DNA from: a virus
Lineage: Duplodnaviria; Caudoviricetes
IMG/VR virus record: IMGVR_UViG_2896054739_000007
Span: 1 to 64,000 of that record
DNA: 64,000 nt
Strand: one strand, 5' to 3'
Part shown: positions 1-62,958 of the stretch, in pieces
Position numbering within the stretch: position 1 is the stretch's first letter
Layout: each line of letters opens with the position of its first letter
Translations under genes and position numbers: made by a program
The notes under the pieces: model-generated
Seen by the model: the letters and a program-made list of their open reading frames with translations, nothing else
The model's database searches: none
Told to the model about the DNA's origin: nothing

Positions 1-1206
1 TTATGTTGCTTTAAATTCTGGAATACTGCTAATAATCTGACTTTTTGTTTCTATATTTCTGCGATTTCTGTGATAGTGATTTTCTGTACAAGAGATATCT
101 GTATGTCCCATCTGTTCCATAATAAGACGACGATCTATATTATGATCTAATAATATAGTACCATATGTTTTACGAATCTTATGTGGAGACTTCTTGTATA
201 TTTCAAGTTTTTGACAATTTCTTTCTAACCTTCTTCTGATACAGTTGGTAGTCATTCTGTCTCCCTTATCATTTGTAAAGACATATTCTCCAAATGGATT
301 CAATGTCTTTATCTTAGAACATAGCCATACATAGTCATCAGGTATTACTACTGTTCTGACACCTGCCTCACTCTTTGGAAACTCTTTGACCGAATATACA
401 TATTTTCCATCTTCTCCAAGATATCTGGTTTCTGTCCGGCGAATTTTAAAAGTATTTCCATCAAAGACATCATGTTTGAGTGCAACAAGTTCACCTACTC
501 TTATTCCTGTAGCAAACATTAACAAAATCCCAATATTTTTACTATCAAGATTTTCTTTTAAATAATTAATCATTGAAGACATCTCTTCATCGTTGAAAAC
601 TTCTTCATAATCTTCCTTTATCGTTTTTTTAAAATCTGTTTCAGAAGTATCCAAATCTTGTAGCATTTCTTCTACATTGAATGATATAAGTTTTCGCTTT
701 TTTGCTCTTTTTAACATTCCACGTGTGATAGTTTTTAGATTTGAAAATGATTTTGCTGTTAATTCTTTTTCTGCAATTTGTTCTTCTAAAAACTCTTCAT
801 ATTCCTCTTCACAAACAGATTTTATTTTTCTGTTTCCAAATTCATTATAATGCCTGTAAAAAATTTGTTTGTTTCTCAAATGGGTAGCCATTGATATCTT
901 TTTTAGTTCTAATCTTCTATCATTCCATTCATGAAACACTTCTGATATGCAAGGATTGTCAATTTCTGATTTCCAGTATTCGATAACATCGTTTTCAATA
1001 GCTTCTCTTGTTATTCTTTTTTTTAATATCCTTCCTCTCTTCTTATCTGGTATATAAGTATACCATTTCCCATCTTTTCCTTCCCATATTTTATATGGAT
1101 GTTTCTCTAATAATTCCTTTCTTTTTTTCATTTTAATTTGCTCTTGCACGTATGATACATTAATCATACCATTCTCAACAGCATATTTCAATAATTCATT
1201 ATCCAT
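1..1206 (-). CDS. Tyrosine recombinase/phage integrase
   Basis: GIRVGE (catalytic R), HKIRKT (HxxR), MGH...HY C-terminal motifs. Start uncertain (ORF open to 1359). Confidence 0.9.
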   Translation of the reverse strand: MDNELLKYAVENGMINVSYVQEQIKMKKRKELLEKHPYKIWEGKDGKWYTYIPDKKRGRILKKRITREAIENDVIEYWKSEIDNPCISEVFHEWNDRRLELKKISMATHLRNKQIFYRHYNEFGNRKIKSVCEEEYEEFLEEQIAEKELTAKSFSNLKTITRGMLKRAKKRKLISFNVEEMLQDLDTSETDFKKTIKEDYEEVFNDEEMSSMINYLKENLDSKNIGILLMFATGIRVGELVALKHDVFDGNTFKIRRTETRYLGEDGKYVYSVKEFPKSEAGVRTVVIPDDYVWLCSKIKTLNPFGEYVFTNDKGDRMTTNCIRRRLERNCQKLEIYKKSPHKIRKTYGTILLDHNIDRRLIMEQMGHTDISCTENHYHRNRRNIETKSQIISSIPEFKAT

Positions 1207-1253
1207 CAAATACCAAAATAGGTTGGATAAAAAAATACTCCAACCCATCCTTT

Positions 1254-1691
1254 CTATGTAATTGTTATTTGTTTGACAAGAGACATTACAGCTAATAAAA
1301 TTAATACTATCGGGGAAATATACACGATTATAAAAGCTATAATATAAACAAATATACATATAGTCATTGCTACAACTGTAGTGAAAAACTCATATAAATC
1401 CTTCCAAGTGATTTTATTATAAGTTTTATCCCATAATTTGTACTGCTTTATATAATCATGTCTTATTTTGTTACAAGATTTATCACAAGAAAATAATTCT
1501 CCACAATTCCAATTTCTATATTTATGTTTGTCATGATGCTTCCAGATAGGAGGATAACAGCATTCTGCATTACATTTGTGCTTTTCCTGTATTTTTTCAA
1601 TATCATCAAAAAATTTCTCATTTAATTCATTTAGAAAAATATACTTGTTTTCAACAATACTATCTTGTCCCAGTACTTCCAAATCCTCCAT
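1254..1691 (-). CDS. Hypothetical protein with C-terminal hydrophobic helices
   Basis: ORF track; hydrophobic C-terminus; start uncertain. Confidence 0.5.
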   Translation of the reverse strand: MEDLEVLGQDSIVENKYIFLNELNEKFFDDIEKIQEKHKCNAECCYPPIWKHHDKHKYRNWNCGELFSCDKSCNKIRHDYIKQYKLWDKTYNKITWKDLYEFFTTVVAMTICIFVYIIAFIIVYISPIVLILLAVMSLVKQITIT

Positions 1692-2598: not shown

Positions 2599-2965
2599 TC
2601 ATGTTTGCCATAGTACTATCCCACCTTTTTGTAATGATTGTTTTACATCAATGAGCCTTTGATTTTGGCTTCCTCTATAAGAAAGTGATATATTGCGTTG
2701 CGAATCAACGTATCTTCCATCTACAATTACATCGCACATTGATGCTATATTTATCCGTTTATTATGATTAATAACAGATTTATAAGTAAATTGTTTAATA
2801 ATATCCTCATTATCTCTATCAAATATAATACTACCGTATTCACTGTCTACAGATATTACTTTATATCCCGTATAAAGCCATATAGATTTTTGTGGACTTG
2901 AAAGACGGATTTCATTGACTAAATAAAGAGTTTTGTCCAAATTATTTTCTGATAATGGATCATTT
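2599..2965 (-). pseudogene. nrdG: C-terminal fragment of an NrdG activase
   Basis: IWLYTGY, DVIVDGRY, RGSQNQRLID present; radical-SAM CxxxCxxC N-terminus missing. Confidence 0.8.
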
Positions 2966-2998
2966 TCTATATAATCATTAATTACAATTCTTTCGTCA

Positions 2999-3178
2999 TT
3001 ACTCTTTAACATATAATCCACAATGACATTCACCACCTTCTTGTTCCCTAAACTCTTTACACATACACTTTGTATCATCTGTTTTTTCAATTTTGCATGG
3101 ACAATAACCGCCATTCTCTTTTATCTTTTCTCTAATTTCTTGTACTAATTCCTTATCTTCAGACAACTTAATTGACAT
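2999..3178 (-). CDS. Ferredoxin-thioredoxin reductase catalytic-subunit-like protein (59 aa, not in ORF track)
   Basis: MSIKLSEDKELVQEIREKIKENGGYCPCKIEKTDDTKCMCKEFREQEGGECHCGLYVKE: CPC/CMC/CHC motifs. Confidence 0.75.
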   Translation of the reverse strand: MSIKLSEDKELVQEIREKIKENGGYCPCKIEKTDDTKCMCKEFREQEGGECHCGLYVKE

Positions 3179-5791: not shown

Positions 5792-6481
5792 TAACCATTC
5801 CCCTCCTCACATCGTTAATAAAGCACATCCCAAAATAATAATTCCAATACCTACAACTGCTTTCCAGTCAATCTCAAATTTCCAAAGACCATCCCATAAA
5901 TTAATCTTCATATAATTTCACCTACTTTCTCATCCTTTGAAACAGGCATCTCAACTTTTAAAATTTCTAGTCAACGCATGTAATTTTTATCTAATGTCTC
6001 GTATTTTTCAATGATACTTTCATTATTTTTACTGCCTGTTTGCCCTATTCTACCGCCAATAGTTCCAACAACATATTTATTTCTTCTACTGTAAAACCCA
6101 TATCTTATAATTCTGTATATATCCAAAACATTTTTTTTATTTCTTCGCTGCAAAACGCTTCATCAACTGTACACCCGTTATTGTTACAGTATTCATCAAC
6201 GAATTTTCTAAAATTTGAATTATATCTGTATTCATTTTTCATTAAATTTGTCATGTCCTACCTCTTCAAATTTCCATTACCGCCATCACGCAAATTTAAT
6301 GCCCAATGTGTTACAGAATCATTAAAATTTGCGTGTGTAACGACTCTTTGTGTATTACTAATTATATATTCTTCATCGCCAAGCATAGCTGTGATGAAAC
6401 CGACTGGTTTACTTAACAGTTCTTTGGCTAATGCATGGCTCGTACTAATTACTTCTAAAATTTCTAATATCTCATTTCGCT

Positions 6482-6937
6482 TTAATTGTACCTATCTACA
6501 TAATATCTGTAGATGTAATCTATTGCACGTTTCATAGCATCTTTGCCAATCTCGAATCTATCAATCTGCTCAATCTTCCAAGGATGAATATTTTTTACTT
6601 CTGAATCATCATCAATAAATCCAATAACAGGTTTACCACTGATAAACGCATATAAAATTTCATCGCTTGTTCCAAGTGAACTATGTAAATCTCTAAGGTT
6701 GCATAATACTATATCTGCTTCTCTAACCATTCTTAAATCAAATCGCATAACTTCTGTTTCAGAATGGTGATAGTTCTTACCTATCTCATAAAAATCTGTT
6801 GGCGATACAAGTGATATATCTTCATAAAGTTGCTTTACATATTTCTTTGCATCTTCTCTCCACTTTTTAGGATAGTCGTGCTGATCCGTATTAAAATAAC
6901 AACTCATAGCACCTGCAAGGTAAATTGTTTTATTCAC
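6482..6937 (-). CDS. Nucleoside 2-deoxyribosyltransferase-like protein
   Basis: IYLAGAM, D..MVREADIVL, SLGTSDE, GKPVIG. Confidence 0.82.
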   Translation of the reverse strand: MNKTIYLAGAMSCYFNTDQHDYPKKWREDAKKYVKQLYEDISLVSPTDFYEIGKNYHHSETEVMRFDLRMVREADIVLCNLRDLHSSLGTSDEILYAFISGKPVIGFIDDDSEVKNIHPWKIEQIDRFEIGKDAMKRAIDYIYRYYVDRYN

Positions 6938-7457
6938 TATCAATAACCTCCTGAACAAAATCTTTTGCTTTACCATTCAATTCTTCTTTTGTGCCACTAT
7001 TATCAATAATGAAGTCATAGTTATAATTAAATACATTTTCATCTGCCATATTAGAAGTAATATGTTTTACTGAATTTCTAATGATTAATAATGTCTTTGC
7101 ATCAAATTCTTTTACTGCTCTGGCAATTTCTTTCGGCTCTCTGATATGTAAGAATAGAAATCTACTTTCTTCGTCTTTCATAAATTCAGCAACTTTACTT
7201 TTCATACTTTCAAATGGCATATCACAATATTCACTTGTTAAAATTTTCAAATCAGATAGAAATTTTCTATCTTTTTCGGACTTTTTACCATTCCATCCTA
7301 TTTCTCTAGCTATCTCTTTTACTTTATCAACAGAAGAAAAATTAATTACTGTATGAAATTTTTTAAACAAATCATTTAATTCTGTAGATACAAATTCTAC
7401 AAATGTATCTTTACCAACTCCTCCAGAACCATTAATTATAAAAATCTGTTTATCCAA
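6930..7457 (-). CDS. P-loop nucleotide (dNMP-type) kinase
   Basis: INGSGGVGKDT Walker A; YDFIIDNSGT C-terminal motif. Confidence 0.72.
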   Translation of the reverse strand: MDKQIFIINGSGGVGKDTFVEFVSTELNDLFKKFHTVINFSSVDKVKEIAREIGWNGKKSEKDRKFLSDLKILTSEYCDMPFESMKSKVAEFMKDEESRFLFLHIREPKEIARAVKEFDAKTLLIIRNSVKHITSNMADENVFNYNYDFIIDNSGTKEELNGKAKDFVQEVIDSE

Positions 7458-7478
7458 ATGCTACCTCCTGTATTTATA

Positions 7479-7574
7479 TCATGAAATAATCTTTTCAAAG
7501 CCATGATGTGTTGCCAGTTCGTTTTCGATTGTGGACTTCCCTGATCCGGAAGCCCCTAGTAAGACAATAATCAT
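7479..7574 (-). pseudogene. gmk: Guanylate-kinase-like N-terminal fragment (31 aa)
   Basis: MIIVLLGASGSGKSTIENELATHHGFEKIIS-stop; ends just before the expected S-x-TTR motif. Confidence 0.78.
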
Positions 7575-8074
7575 ATATGTATCTTCTCCATTCTCTTATA
7601 TGTGCAAAAATTATATTCAATATTGGAATAAGTTTCCTTTTCACTTTCATATATAATTTCCCACTTTGTATTATTATCAAGATTTGGGAAAAAAGAATCT
7701 GCTTCAAAATTACTATATATTTTAGTCACATAAGCAGTATCACATTTATCTAACAGTTGCTTATAAATTGATTCTCCACCGATAACATAAATATCCTTAG
7801 TCTCATATTTTTTCAATTCGTCATATAAATCATCCAAACAATTTAATACAACTGCATTACAAACTTGATAATTAATATCATTAGTTAATATAATATTTAA
7901 TCTGCCTTTTAATGGTAGTCCATTCGGAAAACTCTCAAAAGTCTTACGACCCATAACAACAGTCTTGCCAAATGTTGAATCTTTGAAAAATCTTTGATCT
8001 TTTGGAATACGAATTAGTAATTCGTTTTTATTTCCAATTGCCCAATTTTTATCTACTGCTACAATTAAATTCAT
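7571..8074 (-). CDS. folA: Dihydrofolate reductase
   Basis: IVAVDKNWAIG, VVMGRKT, PLKGRLN, IGG, DSFFP. Confidence 0.96.
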   Translation of the reverse strand: MNLIVAVDKNWAIGNKNELLIRIPKDQRFFKDSTFGKTVVMGRKTFESFPNGLPLKGRLNIILTNDINYQVCNAVVLNCLDDLYDELKKYETKDIYVIGGESIYKQLLDKCDTAYVTKIYSNFEADSFFPNLDNNTKWEIIYESEKETYSNIEYNFCTYKRMEKIHI

Positions 8075-8084
8075 AATATTTTCC

Positions 8085-8924
8085 TTATATTCCTAATTCA
8101 AATTTTAACTGAGGTTTATTTGACTCATATCCTTTCAAAACAAAGTCATCAACAGTAATAGAATAAAAATCTTTTTTATCTGGATTTAGTTCTAATATTG
8201 GATGACAGTCGATTGGTTCTCTCTTTAACATTTCTAATGCATTATCTACATGCCTGTCATAGATTTGCTGGTTAGCAATAAAGTGTGTAAACACCCCTGG
8301 TTTATATCCACAATGTCTTGCTACCATCATCATTAACGCCACATATTGCATCTGATTTATGTTACCTGCTGTCAACCAATCAGAACTGCGCTGATACATA
8401 ATCATATCAATATATTCTCCACGAACTAAGAACTGTGTCTGATAGCAACATGGTTTTAATCCATGAGGTCTATTAAAATCTTCTTTCTGCCATAAATTAA
8501 TAATGTGCCTTCTTCCATATGGATCATTAACAATTTCATCTAAAATAGGTTTTACAAGATTATGCTTTCTTACTGTTTCTCCATAACATGAGCCGATTGT
8601 TCTGTCGCCAATATCCCATGAGTCCCACCAGTCAACATTATACTTATCTCTAAGCAAATCAAGATTATTGCTCTCATCCTGATATATCCAAAGAATTTCA
8701 CCAATAGCTTTCTTAAAATAAATTGGTCTTAATGTAGTAATTGGAAACTCATTTTTGCTAATATCATATGTATGAACCACGCTATTTACTGATAAGGTAT
8801 GTGCTGGTGTTCCATCCTCATAATGTGGTCTTGGATTTACATCTTTATATCCATCATTTAAAATATGGCTTATAGATTTAATCATATATTTATCTGCTTT
8901 TATCATTCTACTTTTACACCTCAA
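8085..8924 (-). CDS. thyA: Thymidylate synthase
   Basis: RRHI, PCC catalytic Cys, YQRSSD, N...Y, QIYDRH. Confidence 0.95.
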   Translation of the reverse strand: MRCKSRMIKADKYMIKSISHILNDGYKDVNPRPHYEDGTPAHTLSVNSVVHTYDISKNEFPITTLRPIYFKKAIGEILWIYQDESNNLDLLRDKYNVDWWDSWDIGDRTIGSCYGETVRKHNLVKPILDEIVNDPYGRRHIINLWQKEDFNRPHGLKPCCYQTQFLVRGEYIDMIMYQRSSDWLTAGNINQMQYVALMMMVARHCGYKPGVFTHFIANQQIYDRHVDNALEMLKREPIDCHPILELNPDKKDFYSITVDDFVLKGYESNKPQLKFELGI

Positions 8925-8965
8925 ACTTTCTCATATCTTCAATAAACGATGAAATAACACTTTTA

Positions 8966-9202
8966 TTATAAAAATTGTTCCATATGTTCATTAAACCTTG
9001 CAATTTCAGCACGATCATCACTAATAATTCTAATTGTTACTGGCTTTGATAAATCTATGGTATAAATTCCAAGTGTTGATTTTGCATCTATCACATATCT
9101 ATCTCTTAAAATATCAATATCACTGTTAAATTTATTCGCTTCATTCGTAAATTCTCTTACCTTTTCAAAATCATTTAAATTTAATGTTAATTCTGTATTC
9201 AT
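8966..9202 (-). CDS. HPr-family protein
   Basis: NKFNSDI...VIDAKSTLGI (Ser46 motif); no His15 equivalent. Confidence 0.78.
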   Translation of the reverse strand: MNTELTLNLNDFEKVREFTNEANKFNSDIDILRDRYVIDAKSTLGIYTIDLSKPVTIRIISDDRAEIARFNEHMEQFL

Positions 9203-9205
9203 TTT

Positions 9206-10021
9206 TTATTCTCCTTGTTTTAAAATATTTTTATCATATACAATCAATGAATTCACAGGGCTGTCCCATCCCACATTACATGAAGAAATATCGCCATCAC
9301 GTTTTATATCTGATTCCAAAAAATTAATATCAACGATAAATTCTGATACACAACCATTCTCTGCTGTTGTAATATTATCTTCCAATGTGTCATTTGGTGA
9401 TTTTATATCTCCTACTATGCACTGTATTATATTTCCATTCTCTAATATCAAGTCTATATATGTTCCAACATCTACATTAAACGCACTGCCTACAGCAACG
9501 CAATATCTATCGCCTACTTGTCTAATCCCAAAATTCCCAGTATGGGCTAAACTAATCTGAAGCTCATATTGCATTGAAGAGATATCTGTAATTGCTGTAT
9601 ATGGCATAAATGATTTAAAGCCATTATTTGTTGGGAAATTATACATTACACTTTTACAAGTTTCATTTGAAATATATTTCTTACTAATATATGCAATATC
9701 ATTTTTTGAATCATTATTATGATATTTGCAGAATACGATTTCCCAATTATCGTTATAATCACATATTAAAATTTCACTGTTAAATGGAATTATATATAAT
9801 ATTTCTGCTTCCAAATTAGGCTCACTTCTCATATTTAAATTATCAGTAGTATATGCTATATAACATTGATTACTTCTATTTTCTTTAACATGCAATACTT
9901 CACGAATATCATTTGTTACACCTGCATATGCACCACTATTTTCTTCTCCATATGCTGAAATATTAGGCAAACTTAAACAAACTATCATTGCTAATAGAAA
10001 AATCTTTATTATCTTATACAT
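9206..10021 (-). CDS. Secreted SH3b-domain cell-wall-associated protein
   Basis: N-terminal signal-like segment; LNMRSEP...YISKKYI SH3b pattern. Confidence 0.65.
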   Translation of the reverse strand: MYKIIKIFLLAMIVCLSLPNISAYGEENSGAYAGVTNDIREVLHVKENRSNQCYIAYTTDNLNMRSEPNLEAEILYIIPFNSEILICDYNDNWEIVFCKYHNNDSKNDIAYISKKYISNETCKSVMYNFPTNNGFKSFMPYTAITDISSMQYELQISLAHTGNFGIRQVGDRYCVAVGSAFNVDVGTYIDLILENGNIIQCIVGDIKSPNDTLEDNITTAENGCVSEFIVDINFLESDIKRDGDISSCNVGWDSPVNSLIVYDKNILKQGE

Positions 10022-45423: not shown

Positions 45424-46698
45424 TTAAACAAAATCCGTTGACATAGCAATATTTCTACTTGCATTAAAGTCTGCATTTAACTCTGCACCACAAGATTTAC
45501 ATTTAAAATGTGCCTGATCAATCCTCTGTCCCTCCTCCCAATGTCCACAACAACTACAAATCTGTGAAGTATGATATGGATTTATCTTCCTTACTTCTAT
45601 TCCATATTTGGCAGCTTTATATGTAATAAACTGTTGAAGTTCATAAAAACTCCAATTTCTTAATATAAATTGATTTGAATCAAAACCGCTTAAATCTTCT
45701 ACATTTATGTATTTTGCTTTGTTCTTAACTGCAAAATCTACAACATTTTTACTGACATAATGGTTATATGTTTTTACAAAATTTCTTTCTCTGTCTTTTA
45801 ATTTCTCTAATGGTTTTAATTTCTTTTGTCTACCGTGCCCACCAGATGTTGATGCTAGGGATTTTTGTAATCTTCTTCTCTGTGACTGTAATTGTGTTCT
45901 AATTCTTAAAAAATCATCTTTAGAACCAATAGATTGTCTTATATAATCATTTGTATTCAATCCACACATAGCAGGTATAGCAAGTCCTAAATCTACACCA
46001 ACAACTATATTTTCATCCAATTCTAGTTCTTGCTTGGGGATATCCATACTAAGATTTAAAATAATTTTCTTACCATCAATTTGAATAGAAGATCCGCACA
46101 CCTTATAGTTCTCTTCAAATATCTGCTGAATTTCGCTTCGTAAATATGCTGATTTATGTGGATTACCGAAAATCATTTTGAATGTAATATTGTTTGCAAA
46201 TTTAATAAATACTTCTAAATCTTTTGAGTACAGATGATCTAAGAAATCTGTATGTGATTCATAATTATGATACATTCCATTGTCTTGGTGATAATTTGTA
46301 CTTCGTAATCTCACAAAATTAACATGGACTAATAATGGATTATTTTTTCTATATGTTGGCAGAGAGACTTTCCCACATAGCAACCCATTTTTACATGAAT
46401 TTGCAAAGTCTTGTTTTACTTGTTTCACTACATATCCTAAATTCATATTTTTTGCAAATTCTATTGATTTATCATAAGCACTCCCTTTTTTACTATTACT
46501 TACTCTTGAATATAATCTATTTAATTCTTTTCTGTCTTCTTTAGAAATATCTTTTATTGCAGCAATGTATAACGCACTCATATATTGATTCATCGCTTTA
46601 TTCTGATAGAAAATACCATCTCTAAGATATTTATAAACCCTATCTATTTCTTCTTTTTCTCCTAATGGAATTATTTGAATTTTTCTTGTTAATATCAA
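45424..46698 (-). CDS. tnpB: Cas12f1/TnpB-family RNA-guided RuvC nuclease (about 424 aa, TTG start)
   Basis: RuvC D (GVDLG), E (INVEDLS), D (NADFNA) all intact; CSCC/CKSC Zn ribbon; GGHGR.KKL and ERNFVKTYNH resemble clostridial Cas12f1 (from memory). Confidence 0.9.
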   Translation of the reverse strand: MILTRKIQIIPLGEKEEIDRVYKYLRDGIFYQNKAMNQYMSALYIAAIKDISKEDRKELNRLYSRVSNSKKGSAYDKSIEFAKNMNLGYVVKQVKQDFANSCKNGLLCGKVSLPTYRKNNPLLVHVNFVRLRSTNYHQDNGMYHNYESHTDFLDHLYSKDLEVFIKFANNITFKMIFGNPHKSAYLRSEIQQIFEENYKVCGSSIQIDGKKIILNLSMDIPKQELELDENIVVGVDLGLAIPAMCGLNTNDYIRQSIGSKDDFLRIRTQLQSQRRRLQKSLASTSGGHGRQKKLKPLEKLKDRERNFVKTYNHYVSKNVVDFAVKNKAKYINVEDLSGFDSNQFILRNWSFYELQQFITYKAAKYGIEVRKINPYHTSQICSCCGHWEEGQRIDQAHFKCKSCGAELNADFNASRNIAMSTDFV

Positions 46699-46837
46699 TC
46701 TATTTTGCCTCCTGTTTTGTATCATAAGCAATTTTGACTTTGTATCTATATAATTTTATAAAAAATACAAAGTCCGTTACATCAAATTAGACTATAGCAA
46801 CTTTGTATCAATGCAATATTATATATATAAAATTACA

Positions 46838-46958: not shown

Positions 46959-47870
46959 TTAATGTGACATTTTATCTGCTCTATGTAACTTCATTACTTT
47001 ATCATACAACCATTCGCCCCAAAATCGCTCATATTTTGACATTGTATCTTCTCCATGTTCTTTATCTTTTTCCCAAAAGTACGGAAACATATGTAAATTA
47101 ATCAAAATTGATACATCTAATTTATCTACACCAGACGGATATAAATAAAACAGACTGTCATATGCACCTACACAATGATGCTGATAGTAATGTGCTATAT
47201 TCGTTGTTTCTCCTTTTGAATTTACAAAAGTCTTTGTAAACGGTTTCCCACAATCATGTAAAAAACCAGCACATTCCAATAGTTTATCTTGTGCTAAAAA
47301 TGCACTTACTTTTCTACAATGTAATCCAAGAGTCATTGAATGATGTGGATTATCCTGCTCATAATTTAAATGATTATTTACCCAACATCCCATCACCTTA
47401 CGAATATCATCTTTAAATTCAATTGAAATATCATCCCACCCTTCAAACCAATAGGGTGTATTCCAATTCATATACATTCTTTTGATCACATCATATGGAA
47501 CATTTCTATCTCTTGAATCATTCCTATTACAACATTCAGCAAACGGTGTTGCCATAATAACGCACTTTTTATAACAAGGAATATTTTTTAATTCAGATAA
47601 AAATGCTCTACGCCTTTTTGAATTGATGTTGGTAGCATCATAAATAACATTTTTACCTTCTTTTAAATTCCCCTTGATTCTATCATGTAAAACTTTAAAA
47701 ACTTCTTCATTTTTATCCTGCGAATTTATATCACCACACAATTCTTTTCTAATTGTGTCTGAACTACAAATTATTGCTTCTAAATCATTTGATAATTCTT
47801 TTGCATAGGTAGATTTACCAGAGCCAGGCAAACCTACCATCATAACAAAAGTTGGTTTTGTATTATTCAT
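46959..47870 (-). CDS. Polynucleotide-kinase-like P-loop domain fused to an HD domain
   Basis: GLPGSGKST, SSD.IR, YDATN, HH...H, LHDCGKP. Confidence 0.85.
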   Translation of the reverse strand: MNNTKPTFVMMVGLPGSGKSTYAKELSNDLEAIICSSDTIRKELCGDINSQDKNEEVFKVLHDRIKGNLKEGKNVIYDATNINSKRRRAFLSELKNIPCYKKCVIMATPFAECCNRNDSRDRNVPYDVIKRMYMNWNTPYWFEGWDDISIEFKDDIRKVMGCWVNNHLNYEQDNPHHSMTLGLHCRKVSAFLAQDKLLECAGFLHDCGKPFTKTFVNSKGETTNIAHYYQHHCVGAYDSLFYLYPSGVDKLDVSILINLHMFPYFWEKDKEHGEDTMSKYERFWGEWLYDKVMKLHRADKMSH

Positions 47871-49194
47871 TTATAACTAACTCCTCTGCTTCCTCCATAT
47901 CTGGAGTATCCGCTTTATCCTTAATAATCCCTTCAAGTACCTTAAAACTGAAATTCTTATGTTTATATGCCGTAAATTTCTCTCGATTGTCAATTCTCAC
48001 TACAACTCCTTCTCTTACATGGGTCTTGCCAATCGGATCAGCACCATCATAATACTTCTCCACTCTCTCCATCAGATCTTCCCATGTAGTAAATACAAAT
48101 TTCTCAAAAGTAGGAACACACTTAATCCCTAGCTTCTCACATTCAATCTGTACCTGCTCCCAAGGAAGTTCTACAGCAAATCCATCCTCATTTGTCATAG
48201 TCATTCGATATACATAAATATCATTTTCGCCTGGTTTACACCCATATGAGAATACAGTTTCCTTACCATACTGTTTTTCAAATTCCTTATCTTTGACAAG
48301 TTTATTTGAACATCTTCCCATAATTGTCTGATCGCCTTCTGTATATCCAACAATCTCATAGAATACTTCTACACCTTTTGGAAGTTTATCTTTAAAAAAG
48401 TCCTGATATTTCTGTCTGAACGCATTACTACCATAATAGCCACCTTCATAATTTCTTAATGTGGTTCTTCTTGTCCCACTAACAACTGCAAATCGCTTAA
48501 TCTCTTTATCCCTAATTTTGAATACCTTCTTTAAAATAAAATGTCTCTTCTTTTTTACAATCTCAATAGCATTTGCAGTTCTAGCAGATGTACCATGCAT
48601 TTTAAGTGTTATGTAACAGGTATCGCCCTCTCTAAAAGCATTCTGATTATATGCAAGCTGCGCAGTATCAATATGCTCTACAAAAAATGGATAAGAAACT
48701 TTTTCCTTCTCTTCTTTCCTATTTCTATTTTTATTACCAGTGGAATTGTTTTCACATCTTCTCCGATTAGAATGCGGAATATATTTTCTACAAATTTCAT
48801 GTCCATCCAACATAGAAATCTGGTCACCATCTGATAATGTTTTTACATCTACATATTTACTTAATACTTCGATTGGCAATACAAGCCCGTCTGACTTTTC
48901 ACCTCTAAGTTTAAGAGCTGTGATATTTCTCTTATCAGGATCAAGATATCCTCCAACATTATTTCCGTTTTCGTCCTTTAAACGAACAAGATTATTATCA
49001 CATGCAAACTCTTCACTTAATTGTCCATCCACAGGGAAATAAATTACTCTCTGTCCTTCTGTATAATTCAAATCTACAATTACATTATTTCCAAAGATTG
49101 TTGCACACTGCAATCTATCAGCATTACTATGTTTTCTAAGCTGCTTAATCGTTGTTATATATCCACAATATCCATTTACTCTATTCTGTTCCAA
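47863..49194 (-). CDS. RNA ligase (DRB0094/Rnl2-like)
   Basis: HSNADRL N-terminal OB domain, TLKMHGTS adenylation motif, EGVV, YK.K. Confidence 0.82.
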   Translation of the reverse strand: MEQNRVNGYCGYITTIKQLRKHSNADRLQCATIFGNNVIVDLNYTEGQRVIYFPVDGQLSEEFACDNNLVRLKDENGNNVGGYLDPDKRNITALKLRGEKSDGLVLPIEVLSKYVDVKTLSDGDQISMLDGHEICRKYIPHSNRRRCENNSTGNKNRNRKEEKEKVSYPFFVEHIDTAQLAYNQNAFREGDTCYITLKMHGTSARTANAIEIVKKKRHFILKKVFKIRDKEIKRFAVVSGTRRTTLRNYEGGYYGSNAFRQKYQDFFKDKLPKGVEVFYEIVGYTEGDQTIMGRCSNKLVKDKEFEKQYGKETVFSYGCKPGENDIYVYRMTMTNEDGFAVELPWEQVQIECEKLGIKCVPTFEKFVFTTWEDLMERVEKYYDGADPIGKTHVREGVVVRIDNREKFTAYKHKNFSFKVLEGIIKDKADTPDMEEAEELVINE

Positions 49195-62808: not shown

Positions 62809-62882
62809 TGGATTCTCTGGGGCTCAACCCCGGGACTGCTCGGTTACGAGCCAAGTTTTCTAACCGACTGAAATAAGAACCC
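62809..62882 (-). tRNA. Atypical or pseudo tRNA, anticodon CGT (Thr)
   Basis: GGGTTCT/AGAATCC acceptor stem, TTTC/GAAA D stem, CTTGG-CTCGTAA-CCGAG anticodon arm; T loop degenerate. Confidence 0.6.
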
Positions 62883-62886
62883 ATAA

Positions 62887-62958
62887 CTGGGCTAACCAGA
62901 TTCGAACTGGTGAATGCAGGAGTCAAAGTCCTGTGCCTTACCGCTTGGCGATAGCCCA
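62887..62958 (-). tRNA. tRNA-Gln(TTG)
   Basis: TGGGCTA/TAGCCCA acceptor stem, CAGGA-CTTTGAC-TCCTG anticodon arm, TTCGAAT T loop. Confidence 0.93.

Follow-up and report, generated by a model that had tools for sequence, protein, structure and literature searches.

The 31-codon open reading frame at positions 7479-7574 (minus strand) of the window, the 64,000-nucleotide stretch of Caudoviricetes DNA analysed here, which comes from a phage of a gut bacterium, is a stub, the 5' remnant of a phage guanylate kinase gene (gmk). Comparison with related loci makes it likely that the rest of the gene was replaced at a palindrome within the stub, and that this palindrome belongs to a family of sites that serve as position-specific crossover points, with exchange taking place at centres that the partners share. 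Phage genomes are mosaics in which the crossover points are rarely visible; here the comparison of a broken gene with its intact alleles and with a dozen alternative junctions narrows one of them down to a few bases.

Every gene in this region of the window is encoded on the minus strand, and the order of reading is an HPr-like gene (8966-9202, 78 aa, PF00381), thyA (8085-8924, Pfam 216 bits), the dihydrofolate reductase gene folA (7571-8074, Pfam 159 bits), the 31-codon ORF, a P-loop kinase gene and a nucleoside 2-deoxyribosyltransferase-like gene (6482-6937, PF05014 6.7e-10, with its GTG start at 6937 placed by homology). The kinase gene (6930-7457) starts with a TTG at 7457 and encodes a 175-aa product matching phrog_139, deoxynucleoside monophosphate (dNMP) kinase, at 1.3e-8. 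It stands in place of gmk codons 32-188, and orthologues of 64-90% identity were found behind the same gmk head. Ahead of it lies a replacement spacer (7458-7478, minus strand), which differs between junction classes and contains the AGGAGG (7464-7469) that serves the kinase gene. Upstream, the thymidylate synthase position is variable in relatives, being occupied by a thyX-type or another gene: thyA alone, thyA with folA, several types of thyX, or thyX with an HNH gene. Between thyA and the head, folA was seen in the window and in locus L066 only and is absent from L033, L052 and L064; its last five codons and stop come from a conserved linker that elsewhere forms the SD region of the head. 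The HNH-like gene, of 149 aa, lies between thyX and the gmk head (L035:4166-4700 and its equivalents in L038), and this insert is flanked on both sides by a diverged copy of the linker (TTGAAGT-GAGGA), as for a free-standing homing endonuclease cassette.

The translation of the stub runs M-I-I-V-L-L-G-A-S-G-S-G-K-S ... G-F-E-K-I-I-S and then meets a TGA, as an earlier note on this DNA had described for a gmk-like ORF. A Walker A P-loop is present (G-A-S-G-S-G-K-S, residues 7-14) and aligns to positions 5-26 of the PF00625 model. Alone, the stub scored 16.4 bits against Guanylate_kin (PF00625), below the cut-off of 25.2 and corresponding to a generic P-loop only; the ORF does not span the full domain, with its GMP-binding S-x-T-T-R region and lid, and when the whole assembly was searched with Guanylate_kin, no C-terminal gmk fragment turned up on the window's contig. 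We ran a degenerate DNA pattern for residues 7-21, with the downstream sequence left unconstrained, on three collections. This yielded 35 loci, mainly from Lachnospiraceae genomes and mouse-gut metagenomes, and one extra locus came from a same-genus genome. At 14 loci the same first 31 residues begin an intact gene of 186-196 aa that continues Y-T-T-R-Q-P-R-x-G-E, and the two intact alleles that were tested matched Guanylate_kin with 74-75 bits over positions 5-181; the other loci are truncated like the window. Thus, the S-x-TTR continuation that the earlier note had expected of Gmk is real, as it is found in relatives with identical heads, and the low score of the window ORF, its missing C-terminal part and the full scores of same-head relatives mark it as a remnant and not as a member of PF00625. 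Recent descent from the host gmk was ruled out, only 11 of 20 residues being common to the host gene and the head. In gmk genes of lower identity (40-73%) the heads have diverged in the ordinary way, and the palindrome is absent from most of these genes; among phage GenBank records we found no close relative of the region.

The small size of the ORF, and nothing beyond it, might suggest an assembly or sequencing artefact or a frameshift in an otherwise intact gmk. Continuation of the gene in another frame was ruled out by the downstream gene, which has its own P-loop. Together with the layout of head, stop, SD and kinase, which recurs in many independent assemblies, and the lack of the C-terminal part from the contig, this makes an artefact extremely improbable.

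The last codons of the stub contain TGAAAAGATTATTTCA, an exact copy of the palindromic 16-bp motif at 7482-7497 (TGAAA-AGATTA-TTTCA on the coding strand, codons 26-31), and another kinase gene with an SD of its own follows, both in agreement with the earlier note. The centre AGATTA is also found in genomes G061, G063 and G064. When the window was compared by blastn with the intact-allele loci, identity stopped at 7481-7483, at or one base past the last base of the palindrome, which puts the junction at the gene-distal edge of the site. The prediction that identity with intact alleles would end within or right after the palindrome was thus borne out. It had also been predicted that identity would resume at another copy of the motif, and this was not seen: identity restarts at 6936, where in the intact-allele loci the gmk stop meets the beginning of the deoxyribosyltransferase-like gene, a boundary without a motif copy (the best match has three mismatches). 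The next downstream site with a shared centre is at 5938-5953 (centre TGCCTG, one arm mismatch; the same centre occurs in G063, L059 and L061). As identity restarts without a site and the next one lies this far downstream, the exchanged unit may be the whole stretch from site to site, and the deoxyribosyltransferase gene may be common to both versions of it. In the course of events that we propose, the remaining 157 codons of gmk would have been replaced, from the downstream edge of the palindrome onwards, by the dNMP-kinase-like gene, which would have brought along its own stop, spacer and SD.

The junction recurs in many other sequences. These are identical through GATTATTT and then split into about 14 junction sequences, and every truncated form diverges 0-4 nt from the site. 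There are at least five unrelated followers, namely the dNMP-kinase-like gene, a second gmk-like kinase that is only 31% identical to the first, a 72-aa ORF, a DUF3310-like gene and a 33-aa ORF. At all gmk junctions the left arm and the centre stay the same, with a right arm of TTTCA, TTTTA, TTTGA or TTTCG according to the downstream sequence. Alleles broken elsewhere downstream in gmk were not found by a search pattern that would have detected them. Furthermore, truncated and intact heads were fully interspersed on the tree (10 changes, the same as in shuffles), a single truncated clade was rejected by the AU test (p=0.015), and one of the truncated heads matches an intact head exactly. These data support the main point of the earlier note, that the gene is broken at a palindrome used as a crossover point, and suggest that behind one conserved head alternative segments may circulate: the gmk tail, the dNMP kinase, the second gmk-like kinase and small ORFs.

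The number of independent breaks inside gmk is a separate matter. Heavily decayed heads precede two more distant kinases (64-68% identity) on the viral contigs L096 and L098, which indicates that the head-kinase junction is old; the gene may then have been broken independently only once, with later swaps at the existing junction. In addition, the sequence common to some junction classes extends a few bases past the site (TTTGATTGG in L037 and L066, TTTTATAG in L039 and L042), which suggests secondary swaps from stop to SD. Both observations are also what would be expected if gmk had undergone one old illegitimate truncation, followed by exchange at the gene boundary between stop and SD and by homologous recombination in the head. 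The palindromes would in that case be regulatory, as operators or leaders ahead of SDs, and would sit at mosaic edges because both lie at gene boundaries. We regard this explanation as unlikely, though not negligible, in the light of the intact alleles and of the site family described below. As for a donor, a site was not found upstream of the donor kinase or gmk2 genes, and kinase homologues of 61% identity or less in other phages have no motif upstream. The L096 and L098 heads have a destroyed P-loop, and one of them has a 4-nt deletion in the site; they provide a time series of remnant decay.

A further explanation is that the 31-residue peptide is itself a selected small gene, such as a leader coupling translation of folA or thymidylate synthase to that of the kinase. 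In a collection of 15 billion proteins the peptide is found unchanged on 130 contigs, pairwise pN/pS among truncated heads is low (0.08), the ATG overlaps the folA stop (ATGA), and the stop of the stub is 21 nt ahead of the kinase start, all of which would suit such a leader. However, the C-terminus varies: the 90% cluster of the peptide consists of variants of 30-36 aa with different ends, all of which split after E-K-I-I-(S/L). Private changes in truncated heads were seven non-synonymous to five synonymous, compared to two to eight in intact ones (Fisher p=0.10, a trend only), and those private to truncated heads include G7V, G10V and L5S, in or beside the P-loop. Moreover, one allele has a +1 frameshift, one lacks the first six codons and two are heavily decayed. 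The low pN/pS does not require selection on the stub, since most of the polymorphism is common to intact alleles. The earlier note had named conservation of the peptide as a complete gene as a finding that would speak against its reading; with its variable end and its P-loop changes, the peptide resembles such a gene only superficially, in spite of the 130 contigs. A coupled leader is thus improbable, and the stub is probably not a gene. For annotation, the P-loop ORFs of 30-36 aa called on hundreds of contigs would then be gene remnants and not small proteins. In L054:1-820 (OFGF01000136.1), an IS605-type tnpB/OrfB gene ends just upstream and replaces the first six codons of the head; the same remnant is here broken in another way.

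We also analyzed the site within the intact gmk alleles. The palindrome is present in 14 of 14, with at most one arm mismatch. Synonymous variants were found at 21 of codons 1-25, compared to none in codons 26-30, and synonymous diversity rose from 0.20 in codons 1-31 to 0.55-0.62 after the site. Ascertainment is not the cause of this step, as codons 22-31 are outside the search pattern and yet equally low in diversity. In pairwise max-chi-square scans, limited to nt 1-450 since a whole-gene scan is dominated by the variable 3' end, the commonest breakpoint was at nt 92-94, and 13 of 45 significant pairs had theirs at nt 92-101. Other breakpoints lie near nt 159, 400 and 428 and have no motif, showing that ordinary homologous recombination also acts. 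Furthermore, L046 and L061 have identical tails and identical upstream DNA, and the head differs at five positions. The diversity step, the breakpoints and this pair together indicate that head and tail have separate histories even in intact genes; a step at nt 93 in an intact, in-frame gmk is left unexplained by a single old truncation. The earlier note had taken the palindrome for a chance site inside the gene. Its presence in every intact allele, the lack of synonymous change in codons 26-30 and its own centre do not support this, and the palindrome is probably an established site embedded in the gene; judged from the pattern of variation, it is not neutral. At the 3' end of gmk in the intact alleles (aligned nt 506-546, the last ~15 codons) there is another sharp mosaic boundary, which is the dominant max-chi-square breakpoint of the whole gene.

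The gmk palindrome is one of many in the window. TGAAA-N6-TTTCA occurs in nine exact copies compared to 0.56 expected, a count that none of 100 shuffles reached, and the degenerate form TRAAA-N6-TTTYA occurs in 18 copies compared to 3.4 expected. A census of sites with no more than one arm mismatch, which avoids the bias of BLAST towards conserved centres, gave 28 sites in the window, each with 5-bp arms and a 6-bp centre, and every centre was different. Partners with the same centre were found for 14-16 of the 28 sites in every one of three relatives, all of them collinear, where chance would give about 0.2. We then compared the 60-nt flanks of the 46 same-centre pairs: both were homologous in 11 pairs, one in 12, and neither was recognisable as such in 23. 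When only one flank was homologous, the arm beside it was identical in 12 of 12 pairs, compared to 3 of 12 for the arm beside the replaced flank (p=0.0003). The arm thus usually changes with the replaced flank, which places the crossover inside the 16 bp, between centre and arm, and the centre is what both parents have in common. Exchange would then occur between two phages at sites with the same centre, with each arm travelling with its own flank and gene order being kept. Consistent with this, a homology block ended within 5 nt of each of the nine exact copies in comparisons with five relatives, compared to 6.6% of random sites and 33% of motif-less gene junctions, although the relatives share ancestry, so that the comparisons are not independent, and some of the small conserved islands came from BLAST, a method biased towards conserved centres.

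Some properties of the family are those expected of regulatory elements that merely coincide with gene boundaries after one old truncation of gmk: the sites are mostly 10-35 nt ahead of start codons, the gene-proximal arm is the better conserved, and a third of the motif-less junctions also have a block end. That explanation does not account, however, for 6-bp centres that are kept where both flanks are unalignable (23 of the 46 pairs), nor for a replaced-flank arm that changes along with its flank. Furthermore, an operator bound by a single regulator should constrain the arms and not a different centre at each site. We accordingly favour crossover at the sites themselves. An exact copy at 2899-2914 lies inside an nrdG-like (Fer4_12) gene (ORF 2599-3114, minus strand) and is a possible third case of a site within a gene; in three relatives its centre TCCGTC is kept, the 35 nt downstream are 74-89% identical and the 35 nt upstream 37-63%. 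Boxes of the form CTATATAT were seen 15-50 nt upstream of site copies and are kept in relatives (15514, 15546, 29600 and 57888, minus strand). A literature text search for the motif strings returned no relevant paper on the motif.

The converse of the gmk junction was found 1.4 kb upstream at a second conserved linker, 8913-8966 (minus strand), which consists of an untranslated 3'-tail remnant of another HPr-like allele and the SD of the thymidylate synthase gene. It is 85-100% identical in nearly all loci even though the flanking genes differ; in some relatives it encodes the C-terminal residues of the HPr-like protein, and in the window it falls after the HPr-like stop. At its upstream edge lies a site at 8950-8965 (centre GTGTTA), which has one arm mismatch in the window and none in four loci; its left arm is met by at least eight different left flanks. 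The break being at the right arm in gmk and at the left arm here, we rejected a crossover fixed at one edge of the site; the two cases are reconciled if exchange is placed in the shared centre.

Two mechanisms of exchange would suit this topology. Exchange may be catalysed by a recombinase of the tyrosine type, for which the two centres would have to be identical, or it may proceed by annealing of the short identical core; conservation of the arms across all sites favours recognition by a protein. In Cre, FLP, lambda Int and XerCD, strand exchange takes place in a centre that must match in both partners. A candidate enzyme, and a candidate only, is encoded by the tyrosine recombinase gene at 1-1359 (minus strand, PF00589 69.6 bits), which has syntenic matches in G063 and G064, and two further PF00589 genes lie on the contig outside the window. 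No match to a serine recombinase was found in the four phage records searched. The PF00589 genes may simply be integrases, as commonly carried by temperate phages; one of the relatives has been classed as a provirus. As a broader and more tentative idea, which we hold to be possible but less than probable, these Lachnospiraceae phages may possess heterospecific site-specific recombination sites as a natural set, in which the unique 6-bp centres would act as addresses. A putative phage recombinase would then swap the segments between addresses with those of a co-infecting relative and leave their order undisturbed, even where the sites are inside genes (gmk, HPr-like and nrdG-like).

The nearest described system to the sites of the window is that of the PeSLs (promoter-early stem-loops) of T4-type phages, short junction repeats in variable regions of large phage genomes that have been proposed as points of modular exchange (Arbiol et al. 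2010, PMC2839356; Comeau et al. 2014, PMC4122927). A PeSL is a composite of a sigma-70 promoter and a terminator stem-loop, lies where insertions, deletions or replacements between relatives end, and recombines by homology between copies (PMC2839356, PMC4122927). Like PeSLs, copies of the window's site stand at the ends of replacements between related phages (all nine exact copies); unlike PeSLs, the sites are only 16 bp long, have position-specific centres and in some cases lie inside coding sequence. Given these centres, copies within one genome share only the 10 arm bases. We found no promoter-like site on the minus strand of 7479-7600, no terminator-like site in 6800-9300 and no known RNA family or RNA structure in the gmk head, and the fold of 7440-7600 had a z of -1.18.

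The sites also resemble the core sites of tyrosine recombinases (loxP and FRT variants, XerCD dif), which have inverted arms around a centre of 6-8 bp; the window's sites have 5-bp arms and a 6-bp centre, and the arms are short compared to the 11-13 bp of known core sites. In the loxP and FRT variants with heterospecific spacers that are used for cassette exchange, recombination takes place within the centre and requires identical centres, so that each arm remains attached to its flank and sites with unlike centres are not joined. The invariant centres, segregating arms and conserved order of the window's sites match this behaviour. Such heterospecific sets are engineered and are not known as a natural genome-wide array. 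If exchange in these phages depends on the centres, it would be the natural equivalent of recombinase-mediated cassette exchange and would explain how accessory genes are swapped in large phages with synteny kept.

Two other systems share part of this pattern. Integron gene cassettes (attC x attI, IntI) are likewise small promoter-less genes bounded by imperfect palindromes and exchanged between elements. However, attC sites are 57-141 bp long and recombine as folded single strands, and cassettes can be reordered, whereas the window's sites are 16 bp long, have unique centres and keep their order between relatives. A cassette array is defined by attC sites with paired R and L boxes and by an intI-attI-Pc platform beside them, and the window's sites do not fit this pattern in length or in order. 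In lambdoid phages, the Susskind-Botstein model has short conserved linkers between interchangeable modules, which act by ordinary homologous recombination. The 93-nt gmk head and the 54-nt tail remnant are like such linkers, but the window's sites differ from them in forming a repeated palindrome family with position-specific centres.

Other features of the window were noted in passing. A TnpB-like ORF (45424-46731, minus strand) lies in the phage arm, with a Cas12f1-like TNB domain (85 bits) and an OrfB_IS605 match. A polynucleotide kinase/HD-phosphatase-like gene adjoins an RNA ligase gene (46959-49194, minus strand), an arrangement that resembles a tRNA-repair pair, and two tRNA genes are found at 62809-62958 (minus strand; Rfam 62.9 and 44.6 bits).
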